Assembly (NCBI GenBank): GCA_963708725.1
Contig: CAVPTL010000006.1
Location: 96,226-160,225, forward strand
Direction: 5' to 3'
Length of the DNA stretch: 64,000 nt
Origin: an uncultured Actinomycetes bacterium
Lineage (GTDB): Bacteria > Actinomycetota > Thermoleophilia > Gaiellales > JAICJC01
Positions 10,148 through 59,130 of this stretch are shown in pieces (within the stretch, counting starts at the first letter, position 1; every line of letters starts with the position of its first letter). Position numbers and translations under genes: made by a program. The notes below the pieces were generated by a model. That model searched no databases. It worked only from the letters and a program-made list of their open reading frames with translations, and was not told the origin of the DNA.

Positions 10148-10178
10148 GTGAATAACGGTGCCAGGCACCGTTATTCAC
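10148..10178. repeat. REP-like palindromic element, 31-nt subfamily (centre A)
   Basis: GTGAATAACGGTGCCAGGCACCGTTATTCAC is a perfect 15+1+15 palindrome. It lies between the convergent gene ends at 10141 and 10175. Confidence 0.9.
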
Positions 10179-11614
10179 AGACCGGTGAGCGCGGTTATGC
10201 GACCGCTCTCCACAGCCTGCTGGAGCGCGTGGTAGTCACGTTCGTTCTGGTCGGCGTAGGCCTCGGAGAACTCGGCGATCGCCTGGTCGAACACGTCGCC
10301 CGTGCCGAGGTATGACGCGATTGCGATCCGGTCGCCCGAGCGGGCATGCGCTCGTGCCAGAGTCCACCCACACAGCTCGGCGTACATCGCCAGGCCGTCG
10401 ACCGCGAGCGTATCGACCTCGATCGAGCCCTTCCAGTCCTTGAGCTGGCGGCCGTAGAAGTCGCGATGCTGGCCGTCGAGATTGCTCTGGGCATGCAACC
10501 ACCCGAGAAAGATGTCGCTGCTGGCCTGGATGAGATGCTGGCCGGCGACCACCCGCTGGCTGTGGCATGAGTACTCGCTCGGCTGGAGGTACTCCTCCAG
10601 AACCGAAGCCTGTGCTTCCTTGAACTGCAAGAACAGCGGATCGTCACCGTCCTTGCCCATCAGCAGCACGATCCACGCGCGCGTGCCGACGCTGCCCACC
10701 CCGACCACCTTGAAGGCGATGTCCACGAACCGAAACTGCTCGAGCAAGAGCCGGCGGTCGCTTTGCAGCGAATCCCGATACCCGCGGATGATCTGCCGCA
10801 GCTGGGCCCATGCGGCCTCGCCGGGCTCTCCGTGGAGGATGTCGCGGGCCGGTTGGATCAGCGGTGGGGCGCTGATGATGCGGAGCTTCCCGTCCACCGT
10901 CTCGGTCAGCCGGGAGAACTCGTGCAGGCTGTCTCGCGTGCGGGTCTTTGCGATGTTTCGTTCGAGCAGCCGCACGCGCTTTGCGTCGAGCTGGGATCGC
11001 AACGCGTCGAAGGTCGTATCGACCTCCTGGCGGGCGTACCACACGGCCAGATTCGTCATGGTGGCGAACTCGCGCATCGCTCTGCGATAGCTCGCGGCCG
11101 TCCGGCGCACCGCGGTCGTGCGCTGCTTGAGAGTGAGGCCGTTTTCCCGCCCGGAGACCGCCACACTCGCAGCCAGCCGCTTGACGTCCCACTCCCAGGG
11201 GCCGGGGAGCGTCTCGTCGAAGTCGTTGGCGCCGAACACCAAGCGCCGGTCGGTCGATGCGAACATGCCAAAGTTCGAAAGGTGTGCATCGCCGCATAGC
11301 TGGGCGTTGAGTCCGGAGCTGGGCGTGGCGGCAAGATCGCAGGCCATGATCCTGGCCGCGCCGCGGTAGAAGGCGAATGGCGAGTTGAGCATCCGGCCGT
11401 AGCGAATCGGCACCAGCTCGGGCACGCGTGTGGCTGCCTGCTCCTCGAGCAGCGTCACGGGATCCGGGCGATCGGCCGCCGGGGCAAACTCACCGTGGCG
11501 TGAACGCGGCACCCGCTGGCGGGCGAGCTTGCCGTGACGGAGTCGCTCGTCGACCGTCGAGTGGTGCACGGTCGTCCCGAACTTGAGGTGGCCCTCGCCC
11601 GGCACGTCGCTCAT
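10175..11614 (-). CDS. DUF2252-domain protein
   Basis: 479 aa. ..RYGRMLNSPFAFYRGAA.., ..CGDAHLSNFG.. and ..NDFDETLPGPWEWDVKRLAAS.. are characteristic DUF2252 motifs. Its ATG overlaps the stop of the upstream methyltransferase (ATGA at 11611-11614). Confidence 0.8.
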   Translation of the reverse strand: MSDVPGEGHLKFGTTVHHSTVDERLRHGKLARQRVPRSRHGEFAPAADRPDPVTLLEEQAATRVPELVPIRYGRMLNSPFAFYRGAARIMACDLAATPSSGLNAQLCGDAHLSNFGMFASTDRRLVFGANDFDETLPGPWEWDVKRLAASVAVSGRENGLTLKQRTTAVRRTAASYRRAMREFATMTNLAVWYARQEVDTTFDALRSQLDAKRVRLLERNIAKTRTRDSLHEFSRLTETVDGKLRIISAPPLIQPARDILHGEPGEAAWAQLRQIIRGYRDSLQSDRRLLLEQFRFVDIAFKVVGVGSVGTRAWIVLLMGKDGDDPLFLQFKEAQASVLEEYLQPSEYSCHSQRVVAGQHLIQASSDIFLGWLHAQSNLDGQHRDFYGRQLKDWKGSIEVDTLAVDGLAMYAELCGWTLARAHARSGDRIAIASYLGTGDVFDQAIAEFSEAYADQNERDYHALQQAVESGRITALTGL

Positions 11615-12756
11615 GTCGCGACGATGACCTGTTCGTAGAACTCGCCGCCGCGCCGGCCCGTGCGCCGGTTGACGTGGCGACGGCGCCGCTCGATCACCCT
11701 CAGACCCGCGTTTTCGAGGATGCCGGCGTACAGGTCGCGGGCATCGTCGATCACGATGACGAACACCCCGCCGGGCCGCGTGTGGGCGAGTGCGTGCGTG
11801 AACACGGCGGTCATGTCGGCCACGTAGTCGGCGGTCACGCGGCGCGACACTCCCCGCACCGCAGCGCCGATCTCCTCGTCGCGCTGATCGTCGAGGCCGA
11901 GCAGCTCGAACGCGTAGCGATGCTGCTCGTGGTAATCGATGCGTCCGGGGTAGGGGGGAGAGGTGATCACACCGTCGAACCGGAGATCGCCGAAGTCGAC
12001 GGTGCGCGAGTCATCGTGCAGCACCGTCGCCGAGACGTCGGTGCGGATGCGCGCGTACTCCCGTACCCGAACGATCGTGTCGAGGCTGTAGCGGCGCAGA
12101 AACTTGAGCGCCTCCGAGGTCGGGTGACATGTGCGCTTGTGTTTGTGGCAGTCATAGGGGCCGGTGACCGGCTTGCGCGGAAACTCGAGGTCGTGGTGGG
12201 CGGTTCGCCGCGCAGAGCGGGCAGCGCGTGACAACACCACGCTCATCAACTCCCGGGTTTGGGGATAGTCGTCGAGCAGGCTGCGGTAGAACAGCAGCTC
12301 CTCGAGTGCGCGGGGTGCATACCACTCGGTGAGATACGCGCCGGCTGGGGGCAGCGCCCGGTGCGGCGGGGCCGCTGGCTGGTAGCGCTCCATGCGGGTC
12401 AGCGCGGCTCGCAGGTCGTGTTCCACCACGAAGGGGTTGTGAACGCCGCTCTTGACCCGGCCGAGGAGCGCGTTGAAGGCCGAGATGTCCACTCCCACGC
12501 TGGGACAGCCGTAGACGCTGGCCTCGACCAGCGTGGTCCCGCTGCCCGAGAACGGATCGAGAATCACCTCTCCGCGGGTGAAGTGCCGGTCCAGAAAGAC
12601 CTCGACGAGCTGCGGGACGTACTTGCCGAGATACGGGTGCAGGCGATGCATGTGCTTGGTGCGTTCGCGCTCCGGAAGCTCGGTTTCGGCCCACGAAATC
12701 TCGGGATCGACATCGGTTTCGAGCAGCGCCTTGGAGATCTCTGCCTGGGTGGCCAT
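11611..12756 (-). CDS. SAM-dependent N6/N4-type methyltransferase (DNA, possibly RNA) with unusual motif order and large insertion
   Basis: Motif I-like HPYLGKYVPQLV..VILDPFSGSGTTLVEA lies at aa ~40-78. Catalytic motif IV ITSPPYPG lies at aa ~265-272, separated by ~190 aa. No restriction endonuclease gene is adjacent. Confidence 0.75.
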   Translation of the reverse strand: MATQAEISKALLETDVDPEISWAETELPERERTKHMHRLHPYLGKYVPQLVEVFLDRHFTRGEVILDPFSGSGTTLVEASVYGCPSVGVDISAFNALLGRVKSGVHNPFVVEHDLRAALTRMERYQPAAPPHRALPPAGAYLTEWYAPRALEELLFYRSLLDDYPQTRELMSVVLSRAARSARRTAHHDLEFPRKPVTGPYDCHKHKRTCHPTSEALKFLRRYSLDTIVRVREYARIRTDVSATVLHDDSRTVDFGDLRFDGVITSPPYPGRIDYHEQHRYAFELLGLDDQRDEEIGAAVRGVSRRVTADYVADMTAVFTHALAHTRPGGVFVIVIDDARDLYAGILENAGLRVIERRRRHVNRRTGRRGGEFYEQVIVAT

Positions 12757-12808
12757 GGGCGTCGACCTTAGCGACCGGTGCGGACGATCTGATCGCTACT
12801 CTGAATCC

Positions 12809-13234
12809 ATGTCCAACAACGTCAAACCCCTCTACGGCGCCGAGCACGTGCGCCGATACCGCGAGACCGATGGTGAAGTCGGTCACGACTGGAACGGTAC
12901 CCAGGCGCTGATTCTCACCACCGTCGGGCGCAAGTCTGGCAAGCGCCACGACACACCGCTGATCTACGCACCCTACGGCGATGCGTTTGTGATCGTGGCC
13001 TCCAAGGGTGGGACGCCGAAACACCCAGCCTGGTATCTCAACCTCACGTCTAACCCTGAAGTAGAGGTTCAGGTTGGGCCCGATCGGTTCTCCGCGAAAG
13101 CGCGCACAGCGACCGGGAACGAGCGGCAAGAGCTGTGGGGTCGCATGACCCACGAATGGCCCGCCTACGACTCGTACCAGGCAAAGACCGATCGCGAGAT
13201 TCCGATCGTCGTGCTCGACCGCCTCGACACCTAG
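12809..13234 (+). CDS. Deazaflavin (F420)-dependent nitroreductase family protein (Ddn/DUF385-like)
   Basis: Starts at MSNNVKPLYGAEHVRRYRETDG. ..TTVGRKSGKRHDTPLIY.., ..VIVASKGGTPKHPAWYLNL.. and ..ERQELWGRM.. are hallmark motifs of this family. Confidence 0.8.
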   Translation: MSNNVKPLYGAEHVRRYRETDGEVGHDWNGTQALILTTVGRKSGKRHDTPLIYAPYGDAFVIVASKGGTPKHPAWYLNLTSNPEVEVQVGPDRFSAKARTATGNERQELWGRMTHEWPAYDSYQAKTDREIPIVVLDRLDT

Positions 13235-15117
13235 GCGGCCAACGCCGCCCGTGCTCGGGCGAGCTTGACCGCGGCCGTCAACGTGGGCAGGTCGTAGGCG
13301 CCGTTGTGGCGCAGCCCGTTGATGAAGAACGTCGGCGTTCCAGAAACCCCGCTCATGTCGGCCGTGTCGACGTCCTCGGAGATACGGCCGACACGGGCGT
13401 GGGTGCGCAGATCTTCGGCAAACCGTTCGCGGTCGAGATCGAGCACATCGGCGTAGCGCAACAGGTCTCGCACCTTGAGGGCATGCTGGTGGTCGAGCAG
13501 GACGTCGTGCATCTCCCAGAACTTGCCCTGCGCCGCAGCCGCCTCGGAGGCTTCCGCCGCCAGCTGTGCGTTGGGATGCACGTCGTTGAGCGGAAGGTGG
13601 CGCCACACATACCGCGCGTCCCCGAAATCGGCCAGCAGGTCGCGTACGACCGACTCGGCCTGGCCACAGAACGGGCACTCGAAATCGCCGTACTCGACCA
13701 CGGTCACCGGGGCGTCGTGAGGCCCGCGGATGTGATCACGATCGGGATCCACATCGGCCGCGAGGTCGATGATGACATCGGCCGAGCCCAGAAGCGCGCG
13801 GATCTGGAGCCGCTTGGGAAGCCTGGCCGTTGCCCGGAAAACGACCCATGTGATCACCGACGAGAGCAACGCTGCGGTCAGGACTCCGAGCTTTGCCTGC
13901 TCGAGCTGCGTCCCGCTGAAGACGAGGGTGGCGATCAGGATCGAGACCGTGAACCCGATCCCGGCAATGGTGCCACCACCGGCGACGGCGGCCCAGCCAA
14001 CCGGCGGCCGTAGCCGACCCCGAGACACCATGGTCACGAGCCACGCCGTGCCGGCGATCCCGACGGGTTTGCCGACCACGTAGCCGACCATGATCCCGAG
14101 TGTGATCGGCGAGGTGAAGGCGCCCGAAAGGAAGCTCCAGTTGAGGACGATTCCTGCGTTGGCCAGGGCGAACAGCGGGACGATCACGTAGCTCGTCCAC
14201 GGGTGAAACTGCTGCTGAAGGCGGACGTTTGGTGAGATCGCCGACCTGACACCCGCGGTCGCGGTGGCCGCGAGCTCCGCGGTTGGCTGCTCTCGGAACT
14301 CCCGGAACAGATCGGAGGCCCGCTCCAGATCCACGCGGGCGGCGGGATAGGCCGAGACGACCAACCCCATCACCAGTCCCACCACCACCGGGTCGACCCC
14401 GGACTGCTCCATGAAAAGCCAGGCGCCGCCCCCGAGGAGGACGTACACCGCGCCGTAGTGGATGCCAAACGATCGGGCGGCCAGGGCAACGGCGAGCACG
14501 ATCACGGCCATCGCCAACTGGGCGGTCTGGATGTGCTCTGCGTAGACGATGGCAATCACGGCCAACGCGACCATGTCGTCGACGATCACCACGGTCAGCA
14601 TGAAGGCCTGGAGCCGGTCCGGGAATGACGGGCCGACCAGCGCGAGCATCCCGAGCGCAAACGCGGTGTCGGTCGACATCGCGGTGCCCCAGCCGTGTGC
14701 AGAGGAGTGCCCGGCGTTGAACAGCAGATAGATCGCGATCGGCACCAGGATCCCGCCGAGCCCTGCCAGCGCCGGAAGCGCCACCCGCCGCCGCTCACGC
14801 AGCTCGCCCATGTCGAACTCGCGACGTGCCTCCAGGCCGACGACGAAGAAGAAGAACGTCATCAGTCCGGCGTTGATCCATTCCTGGAGCTCGAGCGCGA
14901 TGCCGTGATCGCCCACGTGGATCGAGAGCACCGTGTCCCAAAGTGAGTTGTAGGAGGAGCTGTCGATGTTGACCCACGCAAGCGCCGCCAGGGTCGCTGC
15001 GAGCAGCACCGCAGCTCCTCCGGTCTCGGTGCCGAGGAACTCGCGCAGCGGCGTCGGCACGTTACGGGCCCACGCGGTGGTGCCGGCGAGTGTCCGCCCA
15101 TTCGTCGACTCGGCCAT
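13231..15117 (-). CDS. nhaA: Na+/H+ antiporter NhaA fused to a C-terminal DsbA-like thioredoxin domain
   Basis: N-terminus PLREFLGTETGGAAVLLAATLAALAWVN and the following polytopic region are NhaA-like. The C-terminus VTVVEYGDFECPFCGQAE.. is DsbA/thioredoxin-like with CPFC. Start chosen at ATG 15117 (MAESTNGR). Confidence 0.85.
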   Translation of the reverse strand: MAESTNGRTLAGTTAWARNVPTPLREFLGTETGGAAVLLAATLAALAWVNIDSSSYNSLWDTVLSIHVGDHGIALELQEWINAGLMTFFFFVVGLEARREFDMGELRERRRVALPALAGLGGILVPIAIYLLFNAGHSSAHGWGTAMSTDTAFALGMLALVGPSFPDRLQAFMLTVVIVDDMVALAVIAIVYAEHIQTAQLAMAVIVLAVALAARSFGIHYGAVYVLLGGGAWLFMEQSGVDPVVVGLVMGLVVSAYPAARVDLERASDLFREFREQPTAELAATATAGVRSAISPNVRLQQQFHPWTSYVIVPLFALANAGIVLNWSFLSGAFTSPITLGIMVGYVVGKPVGIAGTAWLVTMVSRGRLRPPVGWAAVAGGGTIAGIGFTVSILIATLVFSGTQLEQAKLGVLTAALLSSVITWVVFRATARLPKRLQIRALLGSADVIIDLAADVDPDRDHIRGPHDAPVTVVEYGDFECPFCGQAESVVRDLLADFGDARYVWRHLPLNDVHPNAQLAAEASEAAAAQGKFWEMHDVLLDHQHALKVRDLLRYADVLDLDRERFAEDLRTHARVGRISEDVDTADMSGVSGTPTFFINGLRHNGAYDLPTLTAAVKLARARAALAA

Positions 15118-15145
15118 GGGGGCATTATGCAGATAGCCTGCGCTG

Positions 15146-16321
15146 ATGATCCCTGCGACCGTCCTTCGGCGCCGCAACGAGGGCGAAGCTCCACCGGTCA
15201 CGAACATGGAGTTGTTCTTCGACCTCGTGTACGTGTTCGCGGTCACGCAGCTCTCCCACACGCTGCTGCACCACCTCTCGGCCCGCGGCGCGGTGGAGGC
15301 GCTGGTGTTGTTCGCCGCGGTGTGGTGGGCGTGGAACTACACCGCCTGGGCGACGAACTGGATCGACCCCGATCGGCCGCAGGTGCGGGTGCTGATGGTG
15401 GTGCTGATGCTGATCAGCCTGATCATGTCGGCCGCCATCCCGGAGGCGTTCACGACCCGCGCCGCCGCGTTTGCGATCGCCTACGTCGCGATCCAGGTGA
15501 TCCGAAGCGGATTCATGGTGGCCGCCCTGCGGGGCCAGGTGATGGGCCGAAACTACGCCCAGTTGCTGGCGTACTCATGTTTTGCCGGCGTGTTTTGGGT
15601 GGCGGGTGCATTCGTGGGCGGCGACGCCCGGCTCGCGCTTTGGATCGTTGCGTTGGTGATCGACCTGTCGGCGCCACTCCACGGCTTTTGGCTTCCCCGT
15701 CTGGGCAGCACGCCACTCAAGGACTGGACGCTCGCCGGTGGACATCTGGCCGAGCGCTGTCAGTTGGTGCTCCTGATCGCCCTCGGCGAGTCGATTCTCG
15801 CCGCCGGGGCGACGTTCAGCGAGCTGGCCGACGTGACCGGGTCGATCGTCGTGGCGTTCGGTGTTGGCTTCCTCCAGATCGTGTCGCTCTGGGCGATCTA
15901 CTTTGCCCGGCATGCGGAGCTGGCCGCCCGCGCGATCTCCCACTCACTCGACCCGGCTCGCATCGGTCGTGCCGGCTATGCCTACGGACACGCGGTGATG
16001 GTCGCGGGCGTGATCGTCGCCGCCGTTGGTATCGATCTCGCGATCGCCGATCCCGGGGGCCAATCGTCAACGACCAGCGCGGCGGTGATCCTCGGCGGCC
16101 CGGCGATCTTCGTGGCCGGTAACGCGCTCTTCAAGTACGCGCTGACGGGCCGGATCCCTCGCGACCGCGCGATCGCGATCGCGCTTTTAGCCGCGCTCTC
16201 GGCGCTCACCGGCTCGGTCAGCCTGCTCGAACTGATCGCCTCGGCCACCGCCGTCACCGTTGGGCTGGCGGTGGTTTCGGCTGCGACTCCGATCGACGAG
16301 GCCGAACTCGAACTCAGTTGA
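15146..16321 (+). CDS. Low-temperature-requirement A (LtrA)-family membrane protein
   Basis: ..ELFFDLVYVFAVTQLSH.. is the N-terminal motif of this family. 391 aa, polytopic. Confidence 0.75.
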   Translation: MIPATVLRRRNEGEAPPVTNMELFFDLVYVFAVTQLSHTLLHHLSARGAVEALVLFAAVWWAWNYTAWATNWIDPDRPQVRVLMVVLMLISLIMSAAIPEAFTTRAAAFAIAYVAIQVIRSGFMVAALRGQVMGRNYAQLLAYSCFAGVFWVAGAFVGGDARLALWIVALVIDLSAPLHGFWLPRLGSTPLKDWTLAGGHLAERCQLVLLIALGESILAAGATFSELADVTGSIVVAFGVGFLQIVSLWAIYFARHAELAARAISHSLDPARIGRAGYAYGHAVMVAGVIVAAVGIDLAIADPGGQSSTTSAAVILGGPAIFVAGNALFKYALTGRIPRDRAIAIALLAALSALTGSVSLLELIASATAVTVGLAVVSAATPIDEAELELS

Positions 16322-16751
16322 GGGTCGCGGTGACCGTGATCTCGACGTTTCCGCGCAGGGCGTTCGAGACCGGACAGCCCTTGTCGCCTTCAACAGCAAG
16401 CCGGGCGAATTCTGCCTGGTCGATGCCCGGCACCACGCCTTCGACTGTCAGCGCGATCGATCGGATCTCGAACCCTCCGCCCGATTTGGGGTGAAACGTA
16501 CAGACGGCGCCGACCTCGAGCGACTCGGCCGTCGACCCCGCCTGGGCAAGGGTGTTCGAGAACGCCATCGCATAGCACGCGGCATGGGCCGCTGCGATCA
16601 GCTCTTCGGGGCTGGTCGTACCCTCCACGCGCTCGGTCCGCGTCGCCCATGACACCGGAAGATGCCCGAACACTCCGCTTCCGGCCGCCACCGAGCCGCT
16701 GCCTTCGAGCAGGCTCCCCTGCCAGTGTGCGTGTGCGGTTGAGTCCGCCAT
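16314..16751 (-). CDS. osmC: OsmC-family peroxiredoxin
   Basis: 145 aa. ..GTTSPEELIAAAHAACYAMAFS.. and ..DKGCPVSNAL.. contain the two conserved Cys motifs of OsmC. Confidence 0.85.
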   Translation of the reverse strand: MADSTAHAHWQGSLLEGSGSVAAGSGVFGHLPVSWATRTERVEGTTSPEELIAAAHAACYAMAFSNTLAQAGSTAESLEVGAVCTFHPKSGGGFEIRSIALTVEGVVPGIDQAEFARLAVEGDKGCPVSNALRGNVEITVTATLN

Positions 16752-16797
16752 TTCAGCCCCCTTCGTCGTCAGTTTTGGGCGGAAGGGTAGCGAGTGT

Positions 16798-17289
16798 TCA
16801 GACTGTGGGGTTCGCCTGTTCGTCGGCGAAGCGCTTCTGCCGGTCTCGGCTGTAGCCCTTGCCTGAAGGGATCACTTCGAGGCTCGAGAAGAGGCCCGGC
16901 CCGACCGGCGTGGCGTCGGGTGTAAACACCGCCTCGGCGGCTTTGGCCTGGTAGATCTCGTGGTAGAAGGCGATGCCGCGGCCCTCGTTGTCGACCAGCC
17001 ACTTCCACCACAGAGAGTGCGGCTGTCGCCTCGCCCAGCGGTCGAGATCGGCATACGAGCTCCAGTACACCATCACCAGTGAGCCCTCGTCGCTCTGCAG
17101 CCGACGTGCGAGCAACAGCCCGTCGTCGGCGGAGGTTGCGAGCGATTCCATCAGCTGATCCTGAATCCCCGATTCGGCGTACAGCCGCTCGCCGTCTTCA
17201 CTCAGGACTTGGAGTCCGAAGATGCCGACGCACAGGTCGGGGTGCTCCCACAGCGCCGCCATGTATGTGCCTTCAGGTGCCTCCGGCAT
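16798..17289 (-). CDS. DUF4188-like (monooxygenase/dehydratase-like) protein
   Basis: 163 aa. ..LVMVYWSSYADLDRWARRQPHSLWWKWL..GIAFYHEIY.. resembles the DUF4188 core. This is a motif-level call. Confidence 0.5.
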   Translation of the reverse strand: MPEAPEGTYMAALWEHPDLCVGIFGLQVLSEDGERLYAESGIQDQLMESLATSADDGLLLARRLQSDEGSLVMVYWSSYADLDRWARRQPHSLWWKWLVDNEGRGIAFYHEIYQAKAAEAVFTPDATPVGPGLFSSLEVIPSGKGYSRDRQKRFADEQANPTV

Positions 17290-17298
17290 GGGCCCACT

Positions 17299-17877
17299 CT
17301 AGGCCACTCGCATCGTGGCGCGAACGTGGTCGCAGGCGGCCAGCGTCGACTGCTGGTCGGAGTTCGAGCTCCACTGGCAGTTCATGAGCACGATCGAGTC
17401 ACTTCCAAAGATCAGCACTTTGCGCGCGCGGGCGGTCGACCCACCGGGTAGGGGTACCCCCTCGACGTCGAAGATGACCGCAGGGTCGTTGCCGACCAGC
17501 GCCGCGCTACCCGCCTGGATCGACATGCCCAGTTGTTTCAGCGAGCGCTCGTACTGCGCTGCGAGGGTGTGCACGCTGGCGGTACCCCGGTCGGTGGCCG
17601 CCACGTAGATCAATCCCGATTTGCGGACGATCACCGACCGGTCGCGAGTCTTCGGCGACGGGTCGCCGATCGCAAAGTGAGCGAGGCTGTGCCACCCGGG
17701 CGGGATTCGGTAGCTGTATGGAGCACCCGGCGGGGCCATGCGGTGCGATCCGGGAATTGCAGTCGCCCCGCTGAGAAGCTGGGTGCCCGCGTCTGAGCCG
17801 CCCGAGCTTTGGTGGCCGCATCCGGCGAGCAGCGCCGCGAGCACGACCATGAGCCCGAGGGGTGGGGGAACGCGCAT
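17299..17877 (-). CDS. Putative lipoprotein, unknown function
   Basis: The N-terminus MRVPPPLGLMVVLAALLAGCGHQ carries a signal peptide and lipobox (LLAGC). Confidence 0.55.
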   Translation of the reverse strand: MRVPPPLGLMVVLAALLAGCGHQSSGGSDAGTQLLSGATAIPGSHRMAPPGAPYSYRIPPGWHSLAHFAIGDPSPKTRDRSVIVRKSGLIYVAATDRGTASVHTLAAQYERSLKQLGMSIQAGSAALVGNDPAVIFDVEGVPLPGGSTARARKVLIFGSDSIVLMNCQWSSNSDQQSTLAACDHVRATMRVA

Positions 17878-17917
17878 GCGGCCATCATAGGGATGGGGGT
17901 GACGTTAGGATCGCAGC

Positions 17918-18715
17918 ATGGATCTGGCCGGAGTCCGCGCCCGTTACGACCGTTCACTCATCCGCGAGATCGCCGATGAGCTGATCAGGATCGAGATTGT
18001 CGACCGCGCGCTGGCGCTCGCATCGAAGCTGTTTGTCGCGGTGATCCCGCTGAGCATCATTCTGAGCGCAACCGTCCCGGGTTCTGAATCGTTCGGCGAG
18101 AACCTGGTGTCGCGATTCAGTCTGACCGGAGCCGGGGCGGCGGCCACCCGTTCGCTGTTCGCCACCCGCGGGACGGTGCGCGGTGCGGTCAGCATCATTG
18201 GGCTCGTGATCCTGTTCTACTCGTTGTTCAGCTTCACCCGCGGGCTGCAGCGGGTGTACACCGACATCTGGCGACTCGTCCCTCAGAAGTTCGAGGCGGT
18301 CTTGCGCCGTGCTACCTGGATCGTCGGTTTCGTGATCTACAGCTCGGTGCTCACGCCGATCCAGGACTATGACAAGAACCACCACGTCCCCTATCTGTAC
18401 GCCGGGGCGGCACTCGTGCTGGGGTCGGTGTTTTGGATCTGGACGCCGTACATCCTGCTGGGGCGGCGGGTTCCGTGGAGGCGGCTCCTGCCCACCGGGG
18501 TGATCACCGCGGCGGGGATCGCGCTGTATACGATCGGCTCGTCGCTCTATCTGCCGACGATCTTCACCCACAACGCCGAGCGGTACGGCACCATCGGGAT
18601 CGCCTTCGGCCTGGTCACCTGGCTGTTCGCCTACGCCGGCGTGGCGATCGCCTGCGCCGTGGTGGCGCATAGCTGGGATATCCACCACAACCGCCACCTC
18701 TACCCAGATGAATGA
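17918..18715 (+). CDS. YihY/BrkB-family membrane protein
   Basis: 265 aa, polytopic, with ..FYSLFSFTRGLQRVYTDIW.. typical of the YihY/virulence factor BrkB family. Confidence 0.6.
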   Translation: MDLAGVRARYDRSLIREIADELIRIEIVDRALALASKLFVAVIPLSIILSATVPGSESFGENLVSRFSLTGAGAAATRSLFATRGTVRGAVSIIGLVILFYSLFSFTRGLQRVYTDIWRLVPQKFEAVLRRATWIVGFVIYSSVLTPIQDYDKNHHVPYLYAGAALVLGSVFWIWTPYILLGRRVPWRRLLPTGVITAAGIALYTIGSSLYLPTIFTHNAERYGTIGIAFGLVTWLFAYAGVAIACAVVAHSWDIHHNRHLYPDE

Positions 18716-18893
18716 CCCATCTCCCCGCCGGCTGCTCTGTTGCGGCTGGCCCGCGGGTGGTGTGGCGGCGTCCCACGCGACGTGCGGTGCTCAACGTGCC
18801 TTCTAGGCACGCCTGCGCTCCGCTCGTCGCTCGATCCTTGCCACACCACCCGCGTTCTGCGCCTCACAGACGAGCAGCCGGCGGGGAGATGGG
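18716..18893. repeat. 178-nt long imperfect palindrome (nested inverted repeats) adjacent to a REP copy
   Basis: Outer arms CCCATCTCCCCGCCGGCTGCTC (18716-18737) and GAGCAGCCGGCGGGGAGATGGG (18872-18893) are a perfect 22-bp pair. Inner arms: CGCGGGTGGTGTGGC (18751-18765) pairs perfectly, 15 bp, with GCCACACCACCCGCG (18840-18854). The centre is GTGCC-TTCTA-GGCAC (18796-18810). Confidence 0.8.
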
Positions 18894-18895
18894 TC

Positions 18896-18928
18896 GTGAA
18901 TAAATGGTGCCAGGCACCATTTATTCAC
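18896..18928. repeat. REP-like palindromic element, 33-nt subfamily (centre A), 3' flank of RAYT pseudogene
   Basis: GTGAATAAATGGTGCCAGGCACCATTTATTCAC is a perfect 16+1+16 palindrome. It overlaps the last 8 nt of the RAYT ORF. Confidence 0.9.
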
Positions 18929-19596
18929 GGAGGCGGCGGACGACTGTTGATTGACTGACTCCGAGCTCTGCCGCGATCTCGTGCTGGGTGTAACCGTGTG
19001 CGATAGCGAGCCGAAGTTTGTTGCTGCGCACGAGATCGGCCAGCGGCGGGCGCTCGGGAAGGTCTCTGCCCTCGGCCACGAATTCGCGGTAGCGGTCGCT
19101 GGATCCGTCGAAATACTCAAGCGCCGAGTCGCGGTCAAGCGCCGGGTGTGCCGGGCCAAGCCCCGCGAGCGCCGCGTGGGCAGACCACGGCCAGCGATCG
19201 TGGTCTGCCACGAGTCCCGCCCGCCACGGGTTGAGGGCGATGTAGCGAAACGTCTGGGTGAGATGCTCGTCGTACTCGATCACCTTGGCGTAATAGCGGT
19301 CGCCGAAGAGGTGGCCGGCGCGGTCGTGCAACGCGTTGAACCGATGCGAGTGCGTCGTCCCGATCGCATGCATCCCGAGTGCCAGATTCCTGGCCCGCGA
19401 CGCACGCAGCATGTGGATGTGGTTGCGTGAGCAGGCAGTACGAGAGCAGCCGCCAATTAGCAGCTGCCCGGCGTGACCCATGAGGCGAGAAACGACCGCC
19501 GGTCATGGTCATCGACGAACGACGGGGATGCCGTCGTTCCCGCGCAGGGTGACGTGGTGCAGGGACCGGGTTCCTGACGTCGCGCGGCCGAGGCAT
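18921..19596 (-). pseudogene. REP-associated tyrosine transposase (RAYT; IS200-like Y1/HUH transposase), disrupted by frameshifts and in-frame stops
   Basis: ORF 18921..19481 carries NHIHML (HUH) and GHLFGDRYYAKVIEYDEHLTQTFRYIALNPWRAGLV. The upstream motifs MPRPRDVRNP, SLHHVTLRGN, FVDDHDRRSFL and LLSYCLL are present but split over all three frames. Two in-frame TGA codons lie at 19503-05 and 19509-11. Confidence 0.75.
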
Positions 19597-19665
19597 GGCA
19601 CCACAATAGGTGCCCGCATCGAAGAAGTCCCCGCAAATGTCAACAAACTGCACCGAGTCACACCC

Positions 19666-19697
19666 ATGAAGAAATGGAGCCTGGCACATCTATTCAT
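19666..19697. repeat. Degenerate REP-like element (33-nt subfamily, centre T), 5' flank of RAYT pseudogene
   Basis: ATGAAGAAATGGAGCCTGGCACATCTATTCAT differs from the 33-nt consensus GTGAATAAATGGTGCCTGGCACCATTTATTCAC by about six substitutions and one deletion. It overlaps the stop of the APH-like gene. Confidence 0.6.
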
Positions 19698-20628: not shown

Positions 20629-20639
20629 TCGGGCGAGTA

Positions 20640-20945: not shown

Positions 20946-20987
20946 CTGGTCCTCTTTCGCTTGGGGCGTGCGCGCATGAGTCTAGTG

Positions 20988-21019: not shown

Positions 21020-21028
21020 AGATCGTGG

Positions 21029-22581: not shown

Positions 22582-22621
22582 GGAAGACGAAGGTCGTGGT
22601 CATGTGGCGTAGCCTAACCCG

Positions 22622-29444: not shown

Positions 29445-29453
29445 GGGGGAGAC

Positions 29454-54392: not shown

Positions 54393-55095
54393 GGCCGCTC
54401 GCCTGCTGTGGTTCGTCGCCGGTGCAAGCGGCGCGGGACCCGGCCGCCAGGAACGTCGTCCCAAAGACCAGCTCCGTCCAGGAGCAATCCGCCAGCGTCT
54501 CCTGCATGGCTGTACGAATCACCTCCCACGGACGGCGCATGATCCACTCGTCGATGGAACCGAATGGCCGCACAACCGCGGTTCCGAGCTGCGCCAGCCA
54601 CCAGGGAGCGTTGTCGGGAGCCTTCAGATCCAGCACGACCCAGCGCCCACCGGCGGAGAGCGCGGCGGCGCCGCGGGTGATGACGTCTCCGCATTCAGGC
54701 ACCTGTGTGAGGGCGTAGGTGGAGAGGATCGCGTCGACCTCGGGTGGGAAGTCGAACTCGGCCGCGTCGGCGTGTACGAGGGTGATGTTGCGCCAGCCAT
54801 GGGCATCCATCCGCTGCCGGGCTTGAGCGAGCATCGCGTCGGTCAGATCGACGCCGACGATTCGGCCCCCGGGACCGATCAATCGCTCGATCAGCGAGAA
54901 GTTCAGCCCGGTGCCGCAGGCGATGTCGACCACGTTGTCACCCGGGCGAAGCCCGAGTGCTTGGAGGGCCCGGAGGCGGTGTGACCGCTGCGGGTATCCG
55001 GGAGCGGGGTAGAACCGGGAGGTGAGGTCGTAGTGCTTTGCCTTCTTGCGGTATGTCCCGATCAGGCGCTCTCGCCTATGGTCGGTCGTGCTCAC
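54385..55095 (-). CDS. Class I SAM-dependent methyltransferase (first gene of six-gene operon)
   Basis: 236 aa. ..VVDIACGTGLNFSLIERLIGPGGRIVGVDLTDAMLAQAR.. is SAM motif I plus the post-I acidic residue. Confidence 0.8.
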   Translation of the reverse strand: MSTTDHRRERLIGTYRKKAKHYDLTSRFYPAPGYPQRSHRLRALQALGLRPGDNVVDIACGTGLNFSLIERLIGPGGRIVGVDLTDAMLAQARQRMDAHGWRNITLVHADAAEFDFPPEVDAILSTYALTQVPECGDVITRGAAALSAGGRWVVLDLKAPDNAPWWLAQLGTAVVRPFGSIDEWIMRRPWEVIRTAMQETLADCSWTELVFGTTFLAAGSRAACTGDEPQQASGHE

Positions 55096-55212
55096 GGTGT
55101 CTCCTCGAAATTGGGCGAGCCGCTCACCCGGTCTGTACCCGATACCTGCGGGCTCACTGTCTCGTACGGCCGGTGGGCCTGAACGGATCGGCCAGAGGCC
55201 CCTACCCGTCGC

Positions 55213-55680
55213 CTACGAATTGGATCCGGCCGGCGTCGCGGACTCGACCGCGGCCTTGATCGCCACCATCTCACGATCCATGACACGCTTGATCCTGCCG
55301 TTGAGAACGCTTCCCGGGATCGCGCGCATGATGCTCTCGAGGTCGACCTCAACCCACATCATCGCCTCGGTCTCCCGCTCGTCTATCGGCTCGAACTTCA
55401 TTCCCCAGCGCGCCGCGGAGGTGCCCATCGGCCCGGCGAACGCCAGGCGGCGCTGCGCGTCGACCACGGTCACGTTCTGGCTGCGGTGGCGACTGGATCC
55501 GAGTATTCCCTTCGCCCGCTGCTCGATTCGCGACCCGGGCCGAAGCGCGGCCCCGTCGCTGACCCAACACTCACGCACCGTTGGCGCCCACTCTGGCCAG
55601 CGTCCGACGTCGCAGATGTACGTCCACACTTCCGGGAGGCTGCTACGGATTGTCAGGCGGCTCTCTGATCTAATCGCCAT
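55213..55680 (-). CDS. SRPBCC-family (polyketide cyclase/dehydrase-like) protein
   Basis: 155 aa. ..IRSSLPEVWTYICDVGRWPEWAPTV.. is typical of the SRPBCC ligand-binding fold. Confidence 0.75.
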   Translation of the reverse strand: MAIRSESRLTIRSSLPEVWTYICDVGRWPEWAPTVRECWVSDGAALRPGSRIEQRAKGILGSSRHRSQNVTVVDAQRRLAFAGPMGTSAARWGMKFEPIDERETEAMMWVEVDLESIMRAIPGSVLNGRIKRVMDREMVAIKAAVESATPAGSNS

Positions 55681-55779
55681 TCGCGGGCGACGCTACATGC
55701 TGACCGAGACGCCCGCAAGCGCAGTCCTGCGGCGAGCCGGGCGCCCGCCCCATCAGCGTACGTCAGCGGTCAGCGCAGG

Positions 55780-56445
55780 TCAGCAACAGCCGCAGGTGTC
55801 TTCGCCCCGCCAGGCTTCGCGGCCCTCGCGCACGGCCACGGCGGCGATAACCAGCCCGGCGACTGGGTCGGCCCACCACCAGCCGTACAGAGCGTTTGCG
55901 CCCAGGCCGATGAGAAGCGCGACGGACAGGTAGGCGCAGATCATGTTCTGCTGTCCCTCGCTCTGCGTCGCTTGGGAACCGAGTTGGCGGCCGACCTTGC
56001 GTTTTGCGCGGGCGAGCATCGGCATCGTCGGGGCGGTCACCAGCGCCAGCCCGATCCCGACCCAGCTTGCTTTTGGGTGTGTGCCGGTAAAGGCCCCAAG
56101 CGACTCGACCACGACATATCCGGCGAGCAGGAAGAATGACCCAGCGATCAGCTGCTGCGCCCGGCGTTCAGCGACCGGCGATTGGCCGCGACCCCCGCTG
56201 AAGAGCCAGACGATCACGCCTCCGGCCAGCACTTCGATCAGGCTGTCGATTCCAAATGCGACCAGCGCCACCGAACCCGCGACCACGCCCGCTCCGACGG
56301 CGATGGCGAACTCGATCACGTGCCACGCGTTCCCACCCCAGGCGAGCATCTTCGCACGGCGTTCCAGCCGGGCGCGCTCAACCTCAGAGAGCGCGGGGAG
56401 TCGCCGGATCGTGTGAAGCTTCAGTGGCGTCGCGTCGGTACTCAT
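55780..56445 (-). CDS. Cation-diffusion-facilitator-like membrane protein (TM domain only) with C-terminal CGCC
   Basis: 221 aa. ..GSVALVAFGIDSLIEVLAG.. is the CDF TM2 metal-site motif. The protein ends ..EDTCGCC. Its start overlaps the ArsR stop (56442-45). Confidence 0.7.
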   Translation of the reverse strand: MSTDATPLKLHTIRRLPALSEVERARLERRAKMLAWGGNAWHVIEFAIAVGAGVVAGSVALVAFGIDSLIEVLAGGVIVWLFSGGRGQSPVAERRAQQLIAGSFFLLAGYVVVESLGAFTGTHPKASWVGIGLALVTAPTMPMLARAKRKVGRQLGSQATQSEGQQNMICAYLSVALLIGLGANALYGWWWADPVAGLVIAAVAVREGREAWRGEDTCGCC

Positions 56446-56801
56446 GCGATCACCGTGGTCGCGGTGGGCGCCAGTGCGTGAAGCAGATCGACGCCTTCAT
56501 CGAGGAGCCGGTACATGACCATCTTTCCGTCGCGGCGTGACGCGACCAGCCCCGCGGTTCGCAGTTGCCTCAGGTGGTGGGAGACGAGCGCGTCGGAGCG
56601 CTCCACGATCCAGGCGAGGTCGCACACGCAGAGCTCGTTTCCGTCCCGAAGTGCGTATGCGATCTGAAGCCGGGTCGGATCACTCAATGCTCGGGCTTGG
56701 GCTGCCAGCCCCTCGGAGATCGCGATGCTGAGACGGTTCGTTCGCAGCTCCTCAGCCCTCGCGAGATCAAGGCAAAGCAGGTCACATCGATCGTTTGCCA
56801 T
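56442..56801 (-). CDS. ArsR/SmtB-family metalloregulator with alpha3 Cys site
   Basis: ..LSDPTRLQIAYALRDGNELCVCDLAWIV..SHHLRQLRTAGLV.. is an ArsR signature. The ELCVCDL thiolate site resembles that of CadC/ArsR-type metal sensors. Confidence 0.85.
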   Translation of the reverse strand: MANDRCDLLCLDLARAEELRTNRLSIAISEGLAAQARALSDPTRLQIAYALRDGNELCVCDLAWIVERSDALVSHHLRQLRTAGLVASRRDGKMVMYRLLDEGVDLLHALAPTATTVIA

Positions 56802-56858
56802 ACAGTCACTCTAACACGCATTTGAATGTGCGAATGATCGGCGGGCTAGCATCGGGGG

Positions 56859-57293
56859 ATGTTGACCAATCGTTCGGCACCTCCCGCGACTGTGACGCCG
56901 GTGCTCGTCTACCCCGACGTGCGCGCCGCGGTGGCGTGGCTCGAGGCGGCCTTCGGGTTCGAGGAGCGAGTGCGCATCGGCGACGCGCACCGCGCACAGC
57001 TACGGATCAATCCCGACGCGGCGCTGGTCGTCGCCGACGTACACGGCGCCCAGGTCGCGCCGACCGCGGGCGTCGTGACTCACATTCTCAAACTGCGCGT
57101 CGCCGATGTTGATGCCGCGGTCGCCCGCGCAACCGGTCATGGGGCGCGGATCGTGAGCGAGCTCGAGACGCACGTGTACGGCGAGCGCTCGTGCATGGTC
57201 GAGGATGTCGGCGGTCACCGGTGGGAGTTGAGTCAGACCGTGCGCGACGTCGAACCCGAGGAGTGGGGCGGTGTCAGCACCGGCCAGTGGTGA
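56859..57293 (+). CDS. VOC-family (glyoxalase/bleomycin-resistance) protein
   Basis: 144 aa. ..VTPVLVYPDVRAAVAWLEAAFGF.. and ..CMVEDVGGHRWELSQ.. are VOC motifs. The TGA stop lies inside a REP copy. Confidence 0.8.
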   Translation: MLTNRSAPPATVTPVLVYPDVRAAVAWLEAAFGFEERVRIGDAHRAQLRINPDAALVVADVHGAQVAPTAGVVTHILKLRVADVDAAVARATGHGARIVSELETHVYGERSCMVEDVGGHRWELSQTVRDVEPEEWGGVSTGQW

Positions 57294-57320
57294 ATAACGG
57301 TGCCAGGCACCGGTATTCAC
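57290..57320. repeat. REP-like palindromic element, 31-nt subfamily (centre A), one arm mismatch
   Basis: GTGAATAACGGTGCCAGGCACCGGTATTCAC (GGT instead of GTT in the right arm). It fills the gap between the convergent gene ends at 57293 and 57322. Confidence 0.9.
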
Positions 57321-57321
57321 G

Positions 57322-57825
57322 TCAGTGCGGTGGGGGCGGGATGGAGCCGACCCCGGGCGCTTCGTCGGGCCACACCAGCAACACCGCGCATGGTGCGTGA
57401 TCCACGACAAACCGGGTTACGTGACCGAGGCTGTGCGGTCCCAGGCGTGACCGGTCGCCGTCGCGCGCGGCCACCAGCAGATCGACATCGCCGGCCAGCG
57501 CCGCGACGATCTCCCGCTCGATCCGACCGCCGCGAATCGTGATCTGCTCGACGTTCGCGCGGCCCAGCCGATCCGCCGCGGCGGCCAACAGCTCCGTACC
57601 CTCGGCGTCGGCCACGTCCTGCATATGGGGCGGCGGCCTGTGGCCCAACCGCGCGCGGCCCAGCAGGTTGGCCGAAGCGGCCTCGGCGGTCGCCGCCGCG
57701 TCGCTCGGCGTGTAGTGCAACACCGCGACGCTGGCATCGGGCGGGATGGCGGCTGCCGCCGCGTCAATGCACCCCTGCCATGTTCCTTCGACGATCCAGA
57801 TGACGACGCGCACGCCTCCCATCAT
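57322..57825 (-). CDS. Universal stress protein family protein
   Basis: ..VVIWIVEGTWQGCIDAA.. and ..LLVAARDGDRSRLGPHSLGHVTRFVVDHAPCAVLLV.. are USP motifs. The start ATGATG at 57825/57822 overlaps the permease stop. Confidence 0.75.
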   Translation of the reverse strand: MMGGVRVVIWIVEGTWQGCIDAAAAAIPPDASVAVLHYTPSDAAATAEAASANLLGRARLGHRPPPHMQDVADAEGTELLAAAADRLGRANVEQITIRGGRIEREIVAALAGDVDLLVAARDGDRSRLGPHSLGHVTRFVVDHAPCAVLLVWPDEAPGVGSIPPPPH

Positions 57826-59072
57826 GTCACCACTTTCAGCGAAATCCACAGCGCGACGGTGGCTGTGATCAGCACCGGGGGGACGGTGATCGCGCCAAGC
57901 CGGAGAAACTCGGTGGTCGACGGGTCAAGGCCGCGCCGCTGCAGCACCCGCCGCCAAAGCAGCGTCGCCAGCGAGCCAACGTAGGTCAGATTGGGGCCGG
58001 CGTTCACGCCGATCAGCACCGCGAGCACCGGACCCGGCCCGGCTGCCGCGACCGCTGGGAGCATCAGCAGCACCGCCGGCAGGTTGTTCACGAGGTTGGC
58101 CAGGACGGCAGCCACGAACGCGATCGCCAGAAGCGCCGCAAGCGAACTCCCGCCGGGCACGAGGTGGACAATCACCGATCCCAGCCCGTGGATCGAGACG
58201 GCCTCCACGACCAGCCCCAGGGCGAGCACGAAGGCGAGGAACGGCAGGTCGACGGCTGCTGCAATCTGTCGCGTCGAGACCTTGCCCTGGGCGAGCGCGG
58301 GGACGGCCAGCACCACCGCACCCGTCAGCGCCGCAAAGGCGGGGCTGATCCCGGCGATCGACGTGACGAAGAATCCCACCAGGGTCAATCCCACCACAGC
58401 CAGCGCGAACATCGGCACGGGCGCCCGTGGACCGGTGACCCGTTCACCGCGACCCACCAGATCCGAGCCGAAGAACCGTCGCATCACCACCCACTCGACT
58501 GCGATTGCAGCGAGCCACGGCAGCGCCATCAGCGCCCCGAACCGGGCGAACGAGAGCCCACTTGCCTTGAACGCGAGCAGGTTGGTCAGGTTCGAGACGG
58601 GGAGCAAGAGCGAGGCAGAGTTCGCGAGGTGGGTGCATGCGTACACGTGTGGTTTGGCCCGTAACCGCAGTCGCGTGACGGTCGTGAACACCACCGGGGT
58701 GAGCAGCACGACGGTGGCGTCGAGGCTGAGCACCGCCGTCACGGTGCTCGCCACCACGAACACCAGAGCAAACAGCTTGATCGGCTCGCCGCGCGATCCC
58801 GCCGCCATCCACTGTCCCGCCGCGTCGAACAGCCCGTAGCGGTCGCAGAGATCAGCGAGCACGAGCACCGCGGCCAGGAATGCGATGGTCGGAAGCAGGC
58901 TGCGGGTCTCGGATTTCGCCTGATCGAACGGCAATACACCGATTGCGATCGCAAACACCGCGGCAGGTACTGCGACCAGCGCCTCGGGCAGGCCACGGGG
59001 TCGAACGACCGCGAACCCGAGCGTCGCCATCAGCAGCGCGAGCCCAACGACCTCCGAACCGAGGCTTGGCAT
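57822..59072 (-). CDS. ArsB/NhaD-superfamily (SLC13-like) anion permease
   Basis: Polytopic. ..ANSASLLLPVSNLTNLLAF.. and ..GVNAGPNLTYVGSLATLLW.. are the duplicated hairpin motifs of this family. Start set at ATG 59072. The ORF-track N-terminus (MPGTVIH..) is encoded by the REP copy. Confidence 0.75.
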   Translation of the reverse strand: MPSLGSEVVGLALLMATLGFAVVRPRGLPEALVAVPAAVFAIAIGVLPFDQAKSETRSLLPTIAFLAAVLVLADLCDRYGLFDAAGQWMAAGSRGEPIKLFALVFVVASTVTAVLSLDATVVLLTPVVFTTVTRLRLRAKPHVYACTHLANSASLLLPVSNLTNLLAFKASGLSFARFGALMALPWLAAIAVEWVVMRRFFGSDLVGRGERVTGPRAPVPMFALAVVGLTLVGFFVTSIAGISPAFAALTGAVVLAVPALAQGKVSTRQIAAAVDLPFLAFVLALGLVVEAVSIHGLGSVIVHLVPGGSSLAALLAIAFVAAVLANLVNNLPAVLLMLPAVAAAGPGPVLAVLIGVNAGPNLTYVGSLATLLWRRVLQRRGLDPSTTEFLRLGAITVPPVLITATVALWISLKVVT

Positions 59073-59099
59073 CACCACGACTTTACCCGCTCGGCGCCC

Positions 59100-59130
59100 G
59101 TGAATAACGGTGCCTGGCACCGTTATTCAC
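59100..59130. repeat. REP-like palindromic element, 31-nt subfamily (centre T)
   Basis: GTGAATAACGGTGCCTGGCACCGTTATTCAC is a perfect palindrome. It lies in the divergent intergenic region between the starts at 59072 and 59158. Confidence 0.9.

Follow-up and report, generated by a model that had tools for sequence, protein, structure and literature searches.

Repetitive extragenic palindromes (REPs) and the REP-associated tyrosine transposases (RAYTs) encoded with them are the best-studied case of a domesticated transposase keeping a population of short repeats in a genome, and almost all knowledge of them comes from Proteobacteria. In the REPIN-RAYT systems of Pseudomonas, each REP subfamily has its own RAYT paralogue (PMC3116915, PMC3337134), and co-evolution of RAYT and REP was reported for the REP/RAYT systems ("REPtrons") of Stenotrophomonas maltophilia and Marinomonas (PMC8266576). 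Actinobacteria are missing from two surveys that covered tagged REPs and TnpA-Y1 proteins (PMC3733652, PMC6006769). In a 2018 survey of 1354 species, Actinobacteridae were stated to carry only Y1 genes of the IS200 type (subclass 1.1), and neither automatic nor manual searching revealed REP-like sequences close to genes of subclass 2.1 (PMC6006769). Here we describe a family of 33-nt palindromes, together with a RAYT-type gene, in a 64-kb stretch (the window) of contig CAVPTL010000006.1 from an uncultured Actinomycetes bacterium.

We put the probability that these palindromes are the REP family of a REP/RAYT system in an uncultured soil Actinomycetota lineage at about 85%. The system is of a known kind. 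New here are the host phylum, from which class-2 TnpA-Y1 genes were reported to be absent, the association of REPs with a transposase subclass bearing a helix-turn-helix (HTH), and a symmetric REP without a tag. For this one uncultured actinobacterial group, the locus contradicts both statements of the 2018 survey, on the phylum and on subclass 2.1 being without REPs. The suggestion of an initial annotation of the window, that the family may not have been described in Actinomycetota, agrees with our literature search. With partial coverage, which is no proof of novelty, the search found the core sequence in no relevant paper, no paper linking RAYT or REPIN to Actinobacteria or Actinomycetota, and no report of REPs for the HTH-carrying transposase subclass.

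A symmetric palindrome and its transposase gene

Positions follow the numbering of the window, and copies are named by the start given in the initial annotation. The consensus in the window was GTGAATAA-(C/AT)-GGTGCC-W-GGCACC-(G/AT)-TTATTCAC, where W is A or T. The exact core GGTGCCWGGCACC occurred six times (10157, 18906, 32335, 37562, 57299 and 59109) and 0 times over 100 dinucleotide-preserving shuffles of the window. The seven copies counted before were all recovered, six of them intact and one (19666) decayed.

Each REP is 33 nt long and has an AT-rich outer arm (GTGAATAA), a variable slot of 1–2 nt, a GC-rich inner stem (GGTGCC/GGCACC) and the single central W. The AT-rich arms stand out, as had been noted, against a window G + C content of 63–73%. 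Forms of 31 and 33 nt had been distinguished, but because the "31-nt" form nearly always has a further outer G...C pair, both are 33-nt palindromes (16 + 1 + 16). They differ only in the slot between GTGAATAA and GGTGCC, filled with C or AT in the window and with C, AA, TT, AT, CC, AC or TC outside it. Arms and central bases were as given in the initial annotation, our flank reading agreeing for every copy: the central base is A at 10148, 18896, 32326 and 57290, and T at 19666, 37552 and 59100. Apart from 19666, given as degenerate, the copies had been called perfect palindromes; 18896 and 32326 are perfect. One mismatch was found in the arm of 57290 and one outer mismatch each in 37552 and 10148, and the decayed copy 19666 (32 nt) has one deletion plus substitutions.

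Conservation ends abruptly at ±16, and no asymmetric tag is conserved, copies outside the window included. Because the foot GTGA is paired, the REP is identical on both strands save for the central base. The six intact copies folded stably on either strand (−21 to −35 kcal/mol, z −2.5 to −8.5), and the decayed copy did not fold above shuffles (z +0.5/+0.25). An Rfam scan of the whole window at gathering score gave 0 matches, and a tRNA search of the window found none. The features are:

10147–10179: C-type REP (copy 10148), GGTGAATAAC GGTGCC A GGCACC GTTATTCACA, −26.9 kcal/mol, z −5.8; fills the gap between convergent genes 9656–10141 (+) and 10175–11614 (−, DUF2252), the minus-strand gene having its TGA stop inside the right arm
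18896–18928: AT-type REP, perfect palindrome; 3′ flanking REP of the RAYT pseudogene, whose TAA stop lies in the arm; between the convergent BrkB-like gene 17918–18715 (+) and the RAYT gene (−)
18921–19596 (−): RAYT-type gene for a Y1/HUH tyrosine transposase, frameshifted; the C-terminal HTH is like sigma70 region 4
19666–19697: decayed AT-type REP that flanks the RAYT pseudogene on its 5′ side, ~70 nt before the ATG; also at the 3′ end of the APH-family gene 19690–20628 (−), in a tandem pair
32325–32357: C-type REP (copy 32326), perfect 33-nt palindrome, −35.1 kcal/mol, z −8.5, stem extended by flanks; starts 15 nt past the stop of the Laminin_G_3 gene 31507–32310 (+) and lies ~115 nt before a 5′-truncated alkyl-sulfatase remnant
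37552–37584: AT-type REP, one outer mismatch; between convergent methyltransferase genes 36687–37559 (+) and 37660–38736 (−), the plus-strand gene having its TAA stop in the left arm
57289–57321: C-type REP (copy 57290), one arm mismatch, GGTAT for GTTAT; fills the gap between the convergent glyoxalase gene 56859–57293 (+) and Usp gene 57322–57849 (−), the plus-strand gene having its TGA stop in the left arm
59099–59131: C-type REP (copy 59100), in a gap of 61 nt bounded by the divergent starts of an ArsB/CitMHS-like transporter gene, 57822–59078 (−), and a cupin/TPR protein gene, 59140–59796 (+); the sole window copy not at a 3′ end

The open reading frame (ORF) 18921–19481 (−), between copies 18896 and 19666, had a sub-threshold Pfam match to Y1_Tnp over the C-terminal half of the profile, followed by a C-terminal HTH. 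Its catalytic RYIALNP and its HTH are intact, and three-frame translation recovered the N-terminal motifs LHHVTLRGNDG, FVDDHDRRSFL, WRLLSYCLLT and NHIHML (HUH) upstream. Because these missing motifs sit in other frames, 18921–19596 (−) is a frameshifted Y1 transposase gene.

A related locus (L106) was 99.3% identical to window positions 15923–22599, with the same APH-RAYT-BrkB gene order. Of the 51 differences in 6.7 kb, 26 fell in the 420 nt of 19300–19720, which hold the 5′ third of the pseudogene, its upstream region and the 5′ REP. About half of these 26 are single-base indels, not solely in homopolymers. The 3′ 500 nt of the pseudogene had 3 substitutions and no indel. The RAYT of L106 (P0001) also has a locally shifted frame, and the counterpart of the decayed 19666 copy has an intact core there. 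The cluster is either localised decay or hypermutation next to the REP, or a consensus-error hot spot.

With a frame-mended reconstruction of the protein, intact homologues of 203–231 aa and 45–85% identity were found (P0001 85%, P0002 78%), two of which carry the JGI label "REP element-mobilizing transposase RayT". Each 90%-identity cluster was present on only 1–2 contigs. The HUH motif (NHxH) and the tyrosine of RYIxLNP are invariant across the homologues. The best and only specific NCBIfam family was NF047646, REP-associated tyrosine transposase (E 1e-15 to 1e-19), and the sole match of the family profile among the PDB sequences was 4ER8, the E. coli TnpA-REP. An AlphaFold2 model of P0006 (mean predicted local distance difference test 91.8) gave 4ER8_A, TnpA-REP bound to REP, as the top Foldseek match (E 1.8e-7, TMt 0.75 over 161/165 residues), followed by the TnpA of IS200, ISDra2 and IS608. 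The last ~40 residues form an HTH like sigma-70 region 4 or HTH_23 (Sigma70_r4 and HTH_23 matches). By length, HTH and YIxLNP, the protein resembles TnpA-Y1 subclass 2.1, as judged from motifs and domains rather than from a tree.

We compared 12 loci (the window, L106–L116, L118 and L119) holding 11 distinct homologues. They were reached via the protein database; a tblastn search of the reconstructed RAYT against 105 loci matched by the REP pattern found no homologue besides the window. In 12/12 loci the gene was flanked by two palindromes, usually both of one subtype, and since REPs occur about once per 10 kb, such double flanking of a 0.7-kb gene is not chance. The 5′ REP lies ~65–170 nt upstream of the annotated start, a distance that becomes ~65–70 nt when counted from the true MPRPPR start. 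At the other end, the 3′ REP and the stop codon overlap in 10/12 loci; in L111 and L118/L119 the REP follows just after the stop. Read on the coding strand, the 5′ copy has a central A and the 3′ copy a central T in ~10/12 loci. The link to a REP/RAYT system, which had been raised as a possibility for these REP-like repeats, is thus borne out by the pseudogene between 18896 and 19666 and by the same layout at every other locus. The flanking REPs were:

P0001, P0002 and the window: AT
P0003 and P0005: AA
P0008: TT
P0006 and P0007: C
P0004: variant GTGCATAA...TTATGCAC
P0009: variant GTGACTAA...TTAGTCAC
P0012: a related but different dyad, GGAACAAAGGGGCC-W-GGCCCCTTTGTTCC

The flanking subtype follows the protein clade. 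The types of P0002, P0005 and P0007 were predicted from the first four loci, and 3/3 predictions were correct. The slot, which tracks the enzyme clade, is a likely specificity determinant. Synteny around the gene is conserved, as APH-RAYT-BrkB in the window and L106 and as LeuD-RAYT-DUF8230-PhyH in L108, L109 and L116. Between L108 and L109 the neighbour proteins are 85–88% identical and the RAYTs 61%, with REPs of type TT vs C. This contrast suggests either fast co-evolution of RAYT and REP or cassette replacement by a paralogue at a fixed site.

Some copies have specific flanks that lengthen the stem: ACCGG/CCGGT at 10143–10183, TGCGGTTG/CAACGCA at 32318–32364 and CCCG/CGGG at 37549–37589. 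Three or more extra flank pairs were present in 12 of 111 copies, with ~3 expected. Such stems may have arisen by insertion into hairpins already present, or longer stems may have been favoured by selection; as proof of insertion they were rejected, the excess being only modest.

Distribution and turnover

To follow the family outside the window, the pattern GAATAA-N(1,2)-GGTGCCWGGCACC was scanned in one genome per species (596 Gb) and matches were collected in 8-kb blocks. The counts are lower bounds and, like the proportions given below, refer to the matches listed. The motif, which had been expected beyond the window, was present in at least 105 blocks. Metagenome-assembled genomes (MAGs) supplied about 90% of them, many blocks each: a few labelled "uncultured Actinomycetes" (MFD bins of Microflora Danica), and others from Gaiellales/Thermoleophilia. 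Matches in Syntrophomonas, Pirellulales, Allosphingosinicella and Proteobacteria were rejected as family members, because ~35–70 chance matches to the 18-base pattern were estimated in 596 Gb. Viral contigs gave 0 matches, so the REP is not a phage element.

Among the non-actinobacterial MAGs (Syntrophomonas, Pirellulales, Allosphingosinicella and one unclassified MAG), GGTGCC-W-GGCACC core hairpins with AT-rich arms were present as close inverted doublets (L081 5186–5250, L037 880–940, L079 3650–3750 and L002 4180–4270); some single matches may be chance. The doublets suggest separate repeat families with a similar core.

The scan pattern fixed one arm only, leaving the other free to vary, and the unconstrained arm carried the complementary slot filling in 93 of 138 copies, the rest being hybrid or having a diverged arm. 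The slot therefore covaries between the arms, and what had been read as two length subfamilies is one 33-nt palindrome with a covarying slot. Four MAGs hold the C, AA and TT types (plus AT) together, as does the window lineage; other MAGs hold CC types.

The copies come and go between related genomes, since a C-type REP is present at a convergent junction of L051, after a small Cys-rich ORF, and absent from the orthologous junction of the window. L051 is ~80% identical to window positions 28599–31378, and in a third locus (L104) a CC-type copy lies close to this junction. In the window, a small ORF (30182–30355, +; 57 aa, MQMEWEVVSEEIEKCAQCKRYLSWWTEPPRHGKHASVRHAICSCQARYTSDPDGSAN) is unannotated and lies between a GST-like and a MetE-like gene. 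It is Cys/His-rich and conserved in L051, and our ORF list had extended a minus-strand gene across it.

Similarity of the window to L051 and L044 ends at ~32301–32308, shortly before the REP at 32325–32357, which places this REP at a synteny breakpoint; contig L051 itself ends there, ~20 nt before the point matching the REP. Downstream, ORF 32472–33281 (+) aligns with alkyl sulfatases in their dimerisation and C-terminal domains only. Because the N-terminal metallo-beta-lactamase domain (~330 aa) is missing, it is a 5′-truncated remnant.

Doublets of REPs were found in related MAGs, 10 in all, at a centre spacing of 44–48 nt (L010, L012, L021, L035, L049, L056, L061 and L075). Most consist of a C-type copy and one of type TT or AT, separated by a linker of 11–15 nt with little conservation, and they do not form one long hairpin. 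The window has singlets only.

A conserved composite repeat of ~150 nt, found in CAVOFQ and in a Gaiellales bin, has the CC-type palindrome inside it; it recurs every 159–330 bp and has the consensus ...GAACGGTCAGAACACCACGC...CCACCGCCAGGGTGG-[palindrome]-GGCCGCAGGCCGTGGACGCGGAAGGTCGACAAGACCG...GGGGACATTGCTCGTCCCC (L047 2100–2650, L004 4350–4830, L044 250–410, L100 and L101). Its flanks keep one orientation, and both A and T occur as the central base. For this reason the central base, which the initial annotation took to mark orientation, is not a reliable mark of it. For tandem copies in general, the central base, read along the sense strand of the gene upstream, was A in 34 and T in 14 (binomial p 0.0055), and a weak association with local GC skew, to which we give no weight, was present (Fisher p 0.028). 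The excess of A may be a strand-specific bias of insertion or retention.

Placement at gene ends and alternative explanations

The family is strongly extragenic and biased toward 3′ ends, which agrees with the intergenic enrichment expected from the window. The 127 classifiable copies comprised 63 convergent, 48 tandem, 11 divergent and 5 genic, compared with 121 convergent, 535 tandem and 123 divergent junctions. Convergent gaps thus held 52% of intergenic copies vs 15.5% of junctions, and divergent gaps 9% vs 16%. In tandem pairs the median distance of the REP centre was 16 nt to the upstream stop and 81 nt to the following start, and the centre was closer to the stop in 39/48. Within the window, copies 10148, 18896, 37552 and 57290 lie between convergent ends, as had been observed for four of the seven; 19666 and 32326 are 3′ of a gene in a tandem pair. 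All seven are at gene termini, as stated before, with the qualification that 59100 lies at divergent starts and not at 3′ ends. GTGAATAA holds TGA and TAA in two frames, and four window genes stop inside a REP arm (10175–10177 (−), 18921–18923 (−), 37557–37559 (+) and 57291–57293 (+)).

With this placement, the hairpins could be primarily selected as bidirectional intrinsic terminators or stabilisers of mRNA 3′ ends, the likeness between copies and the transposase neighbour being incidental. A REP is present in 4/5 convergent gaps >25 nt of the window, and the convergent excess, the short distance to upstream stops and the strong hairpins on both strands point the same way. So does the sequence after the stem: GUUAUUCA, AUUUAUUC or UUUUAUUC comes after the inner GC stem, and the same on the other strand. 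As read from the sequence and counting the inner GGUGCC/GGCACC stem only, a tail with 4–6 U in 8 follows on both strands. Something other than canonical terminators must also end transcripts here, terminator-like sites (GC stem plus T-run) not being enriched over shuffles (5 vs 5.0 in 9000–21000, 5 vs 3.8 in 31000–39000 and 1 vs 2.8 in 55000–61000). The source genome appears to make little use of classical L-shaped terminators. No sigma-70-consensus promoters were found in the same three regions. Selection for termination, however, does not explain near-identical 33-mers at hundreds of places in several species, nor the subtype-specific flanking of a Y1 gene in 12/12 loci, and no T-run follows the full stem. 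Copies between divergent starts are likewise unexplained, and the one in the divergent promoter gap argues that termination is not the reason copies exist. We regard this explanation as very unlikely. As a secondary role of REPs, action of the hairpins as 3′-end barriers or bidirectional terminators is plausible, although we lean somewhat against it.

Equally improbable, in our view, is that REP-gene-REP is an ordinary insertion sequence (IS) of the IS200/IS605 type, with the solitary palindromes as derivatives similar to miniature inverted-repeat or palindrome-associated transposable elements (MITE/PATE-like), or as excision footprints. The Y1_Tnp fold, the likeness to the TnpA of IS200, IS608 and ISDra2 and the hairpins at both gene ends would fit, and centre-to-centre excision of the cassette would be expected to leave exactly one palindrome. 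Yet each 90%-identity cluster is on only 1–2 contigs, gene order around it is conserved (APH-RAYT-BrkB; LeuD-RAYT-DUF8230-PhyH), and no tnpB/OrfB neighbour was found in any RAYT locus examined. Where subclass 1.1 has DH[VI]H and Y[IV]ENQ (PMC6006769 Table 1), these proteins have NHxH and YIALNP, and the best matches by sequence and structure are TnpA-REP, not TnpA-IS200. The palindromes are not the terminal inverted repeat (TIR) of an IS; such a TIR would have spoken against the initial annotation.

Still less probable is that the palindromes are operators of a large regulon under a dimeric HTH regulator, for which the RAYT-like protein's own HTH could be a candidate. The dyad is perfect and its outer half-sites are AT-rich, the associated protein has a sigma70-r4/HTH_23-like domain, and the copy at 59099–59131 stands in a divergent promoter region, all of which would suit an operator. 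Against this, the copies hug stop codons and are depleted from divergent gaps (9% vs 16%), though those are much longer. The neighbour genes are functionally unrelated, and because the catalytic HUH and Tyr are invariant, the protein is kept as an enzyme. DNA-uptake signal sequences in inverted pairs, as in Neisseria or Pasteurellaceae, share the high copy number and the frequent terminator-like dyads after genes, but they are also dense inside genes, where only 5/127 copies lie here, and they leave the subtype-specific linkage to a Y1 transposase unexplained. No sign of competence was met with, no search aimed at it having been made, and we give this idea practically no weight.

For the REP/RAYT reading we propose the following mechanism. 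A single-copy HUH/Y1 transposase of the TnpA-REP type (203–231 aa, with the extra C-terminal HTH) is encoded between two REPs, different RAYT clades going with different slot fillings (AT, AA, TT and C). By analogy with E. coli TnpA-REP and the TnpA of IS200/IS605 (PMC3479197, PMC8266576), it would recognise the REP as a hairpin on single-stranded DNA, and its HUH/Tyr centre would cleave and rejoin REPs, so that copies spread or turn over. Copies would persist where they are least harmful, just past stop codons and between convergent genes, often supplying the stop codon. The transcript hairpins (−21 to −35 kcal/mol) may secondarily serve as barriers at 3′ ends or as bidirectional terminators. 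In the window, the AT-type RAYT is frameshifted and its 5′ REP decayed. The RAYT expected for the four C-type copies would lie outside the window.

Several points weigh against this reading. The activity of the RAYT on REPs is taken from homologous enzymes. The RAYT in the window is a pseudogene, or sits in an assembly-error hot spot, and the window holds no RAYT for the C-type copies. Scores against NF047646 reach 54–68 bits, under the equivalog cut-off of 80, so that the RAYT clade is a divergent branch. The unpaired 5′ tag of canonical REPs, GT[AG]G or CGTC (as defined in PMC3733652 and PMC6006769), was not found in these palindromes, the foot GTGA being paired with TCAC. Copy number genome-wide is known as a lower bound. 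The gene contexts rest on a rough codon-usage gene caller written for this analysis, with the window genes backed by Pfam. Turnover is seen in a single case of presence/absence, with boundaries blurred by 20% divergence. For the terminator role in particular, a simple terminator scan around all copies flagged none, because no T-run follows the full 16-bp stem, and the copies between divergent starts, 59100 in the window and 11/127 overall, misfit a pure terminator.

A more specific scenario is tentative, and we hold it at slightly under even odds. Y1 transposases of the HTH-bearing, subclass-2.1/TIRYT-like kind may have founded, in one lineage of uncultured soil actinobacteria, a family of symmetric 33-nt REPs without tags in which a mirrored "address" slot of 1–2 nt co-diversified with the RAYT paralogues (C, AT, AA, TT). 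If this is true, the family would provide naturally occurring variants from which the recognition of REPs by RAYTs could be read, and a link between TIR-flanked and REP-flanked Y1 transposases; the filling of the slot can even change at a single syntenic RAYT locus, with neighbours 85–88% identical. The clean anatomy, a perfect dyad with one slot tracking the clade, makes RAYT-REP specificity directly testable. REPs of this kind are worth annotating in soil Actinomycetota MAGs, since they serve as markers of gene ends, provide stop codons and probably interrupt assemblies.

Comparison with known systems

The closest model is the E. coli REPtron (4ER8; PMC3479197, PMC2817692). In both systems, short extragenic palindromes are present in high copy number and gather at the 3′ ends of genes, and a single-copy HUH/Y1 gene stands between REPs of its own. 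TnpA-REP shares the fold, with 4ER8 on top both by sequence profile and by Foldseek, as well as HUH and tyrosine motifs, the latter of YIxxNP type. Aligned by structure, however, the proteins are only 19% identical, and the extra C-terminal HTH is present only here. The REP itself differs as well, being fully symmetric over 33 nt, with no bulge, no unpaired GTAG tag and a GTGA foot paired with TCAC. The E. coli host belongs to the Gammaproteobacteria, whereas ours belongs to the Actinomycetota. The doublets in related MAGs are reminiscent of the bacterial interspersed mosaic elements (BIMEs; Y/Z REP pairs) of E. coli, here pairing C-type with TT- or AT-type copies.

Perfect-palindrome stems are shared with the REPtrons of Stenotrophomonas maltophilia and Marinomonas, and the co-evolution reported there can be likened to the slot filling that tracks the RAYT clade. 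Those REPs keep GTAG, used for recognition and the choice of cleavage site (PMC8266576), whereas nothing outside the palindrome is conserved here, and their proteins lack the HTH tail.

The Pseudomonas REPIN-RAYT systems also have several REP subfamilies per genome, as do the four MAGs with C, AA and TT (plus AT) types, and a RAYT gene inherited in synteny. The doublets of the related MAGs, at 44–48 nt, invite comparison with REPINs. A REPIN, however, consists of two inverted REPs folding as one long hairpin, whereas each unit here is already a complete palindrome. Doublets here usually join two subtypes (C with TT or AT) through an unconserved linker of 11–15 nt, and the window has singlets only.

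The HUH/Y1 chemistry and the recognition of DNA hairpins are shared with IS200/IS605 elements (IS608, ISDra2), which gave the second-best structural matches. The system described here differs in that it is not multi-copy, has no tnpB and other HuH/Y signatures, and disperses its hairpins alone, hundreds of times.

By protein, the nearest relatives are TnpA-Y1 subclass 2.1/TIRYT, which is RAYT group 1 of Bertels et al. (PMC6006769, PMC3733652, PMC5581495), with a median length of 238 aa there and 203–231 aa here. Both have the C-terminal HTH (HTH_23 or Bac_DnaA_C-like), NHxH and YIxLNP (YIALNP in our proteins, YIELNP or Y[IV]HLNP in that subclass). The more distant homologue P0024, at 36% identity, has a 17-bp TIR, GGGGTCAGGTCTTGCAT, on its flanks, which fits the published TIRYT consensus GGGG[AT][CG]A[CG]. 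Long TIRs were found only at P0024, whereas in the clade of at least 45% identity REPs stand on both sides of the gene in 12/12 loci.

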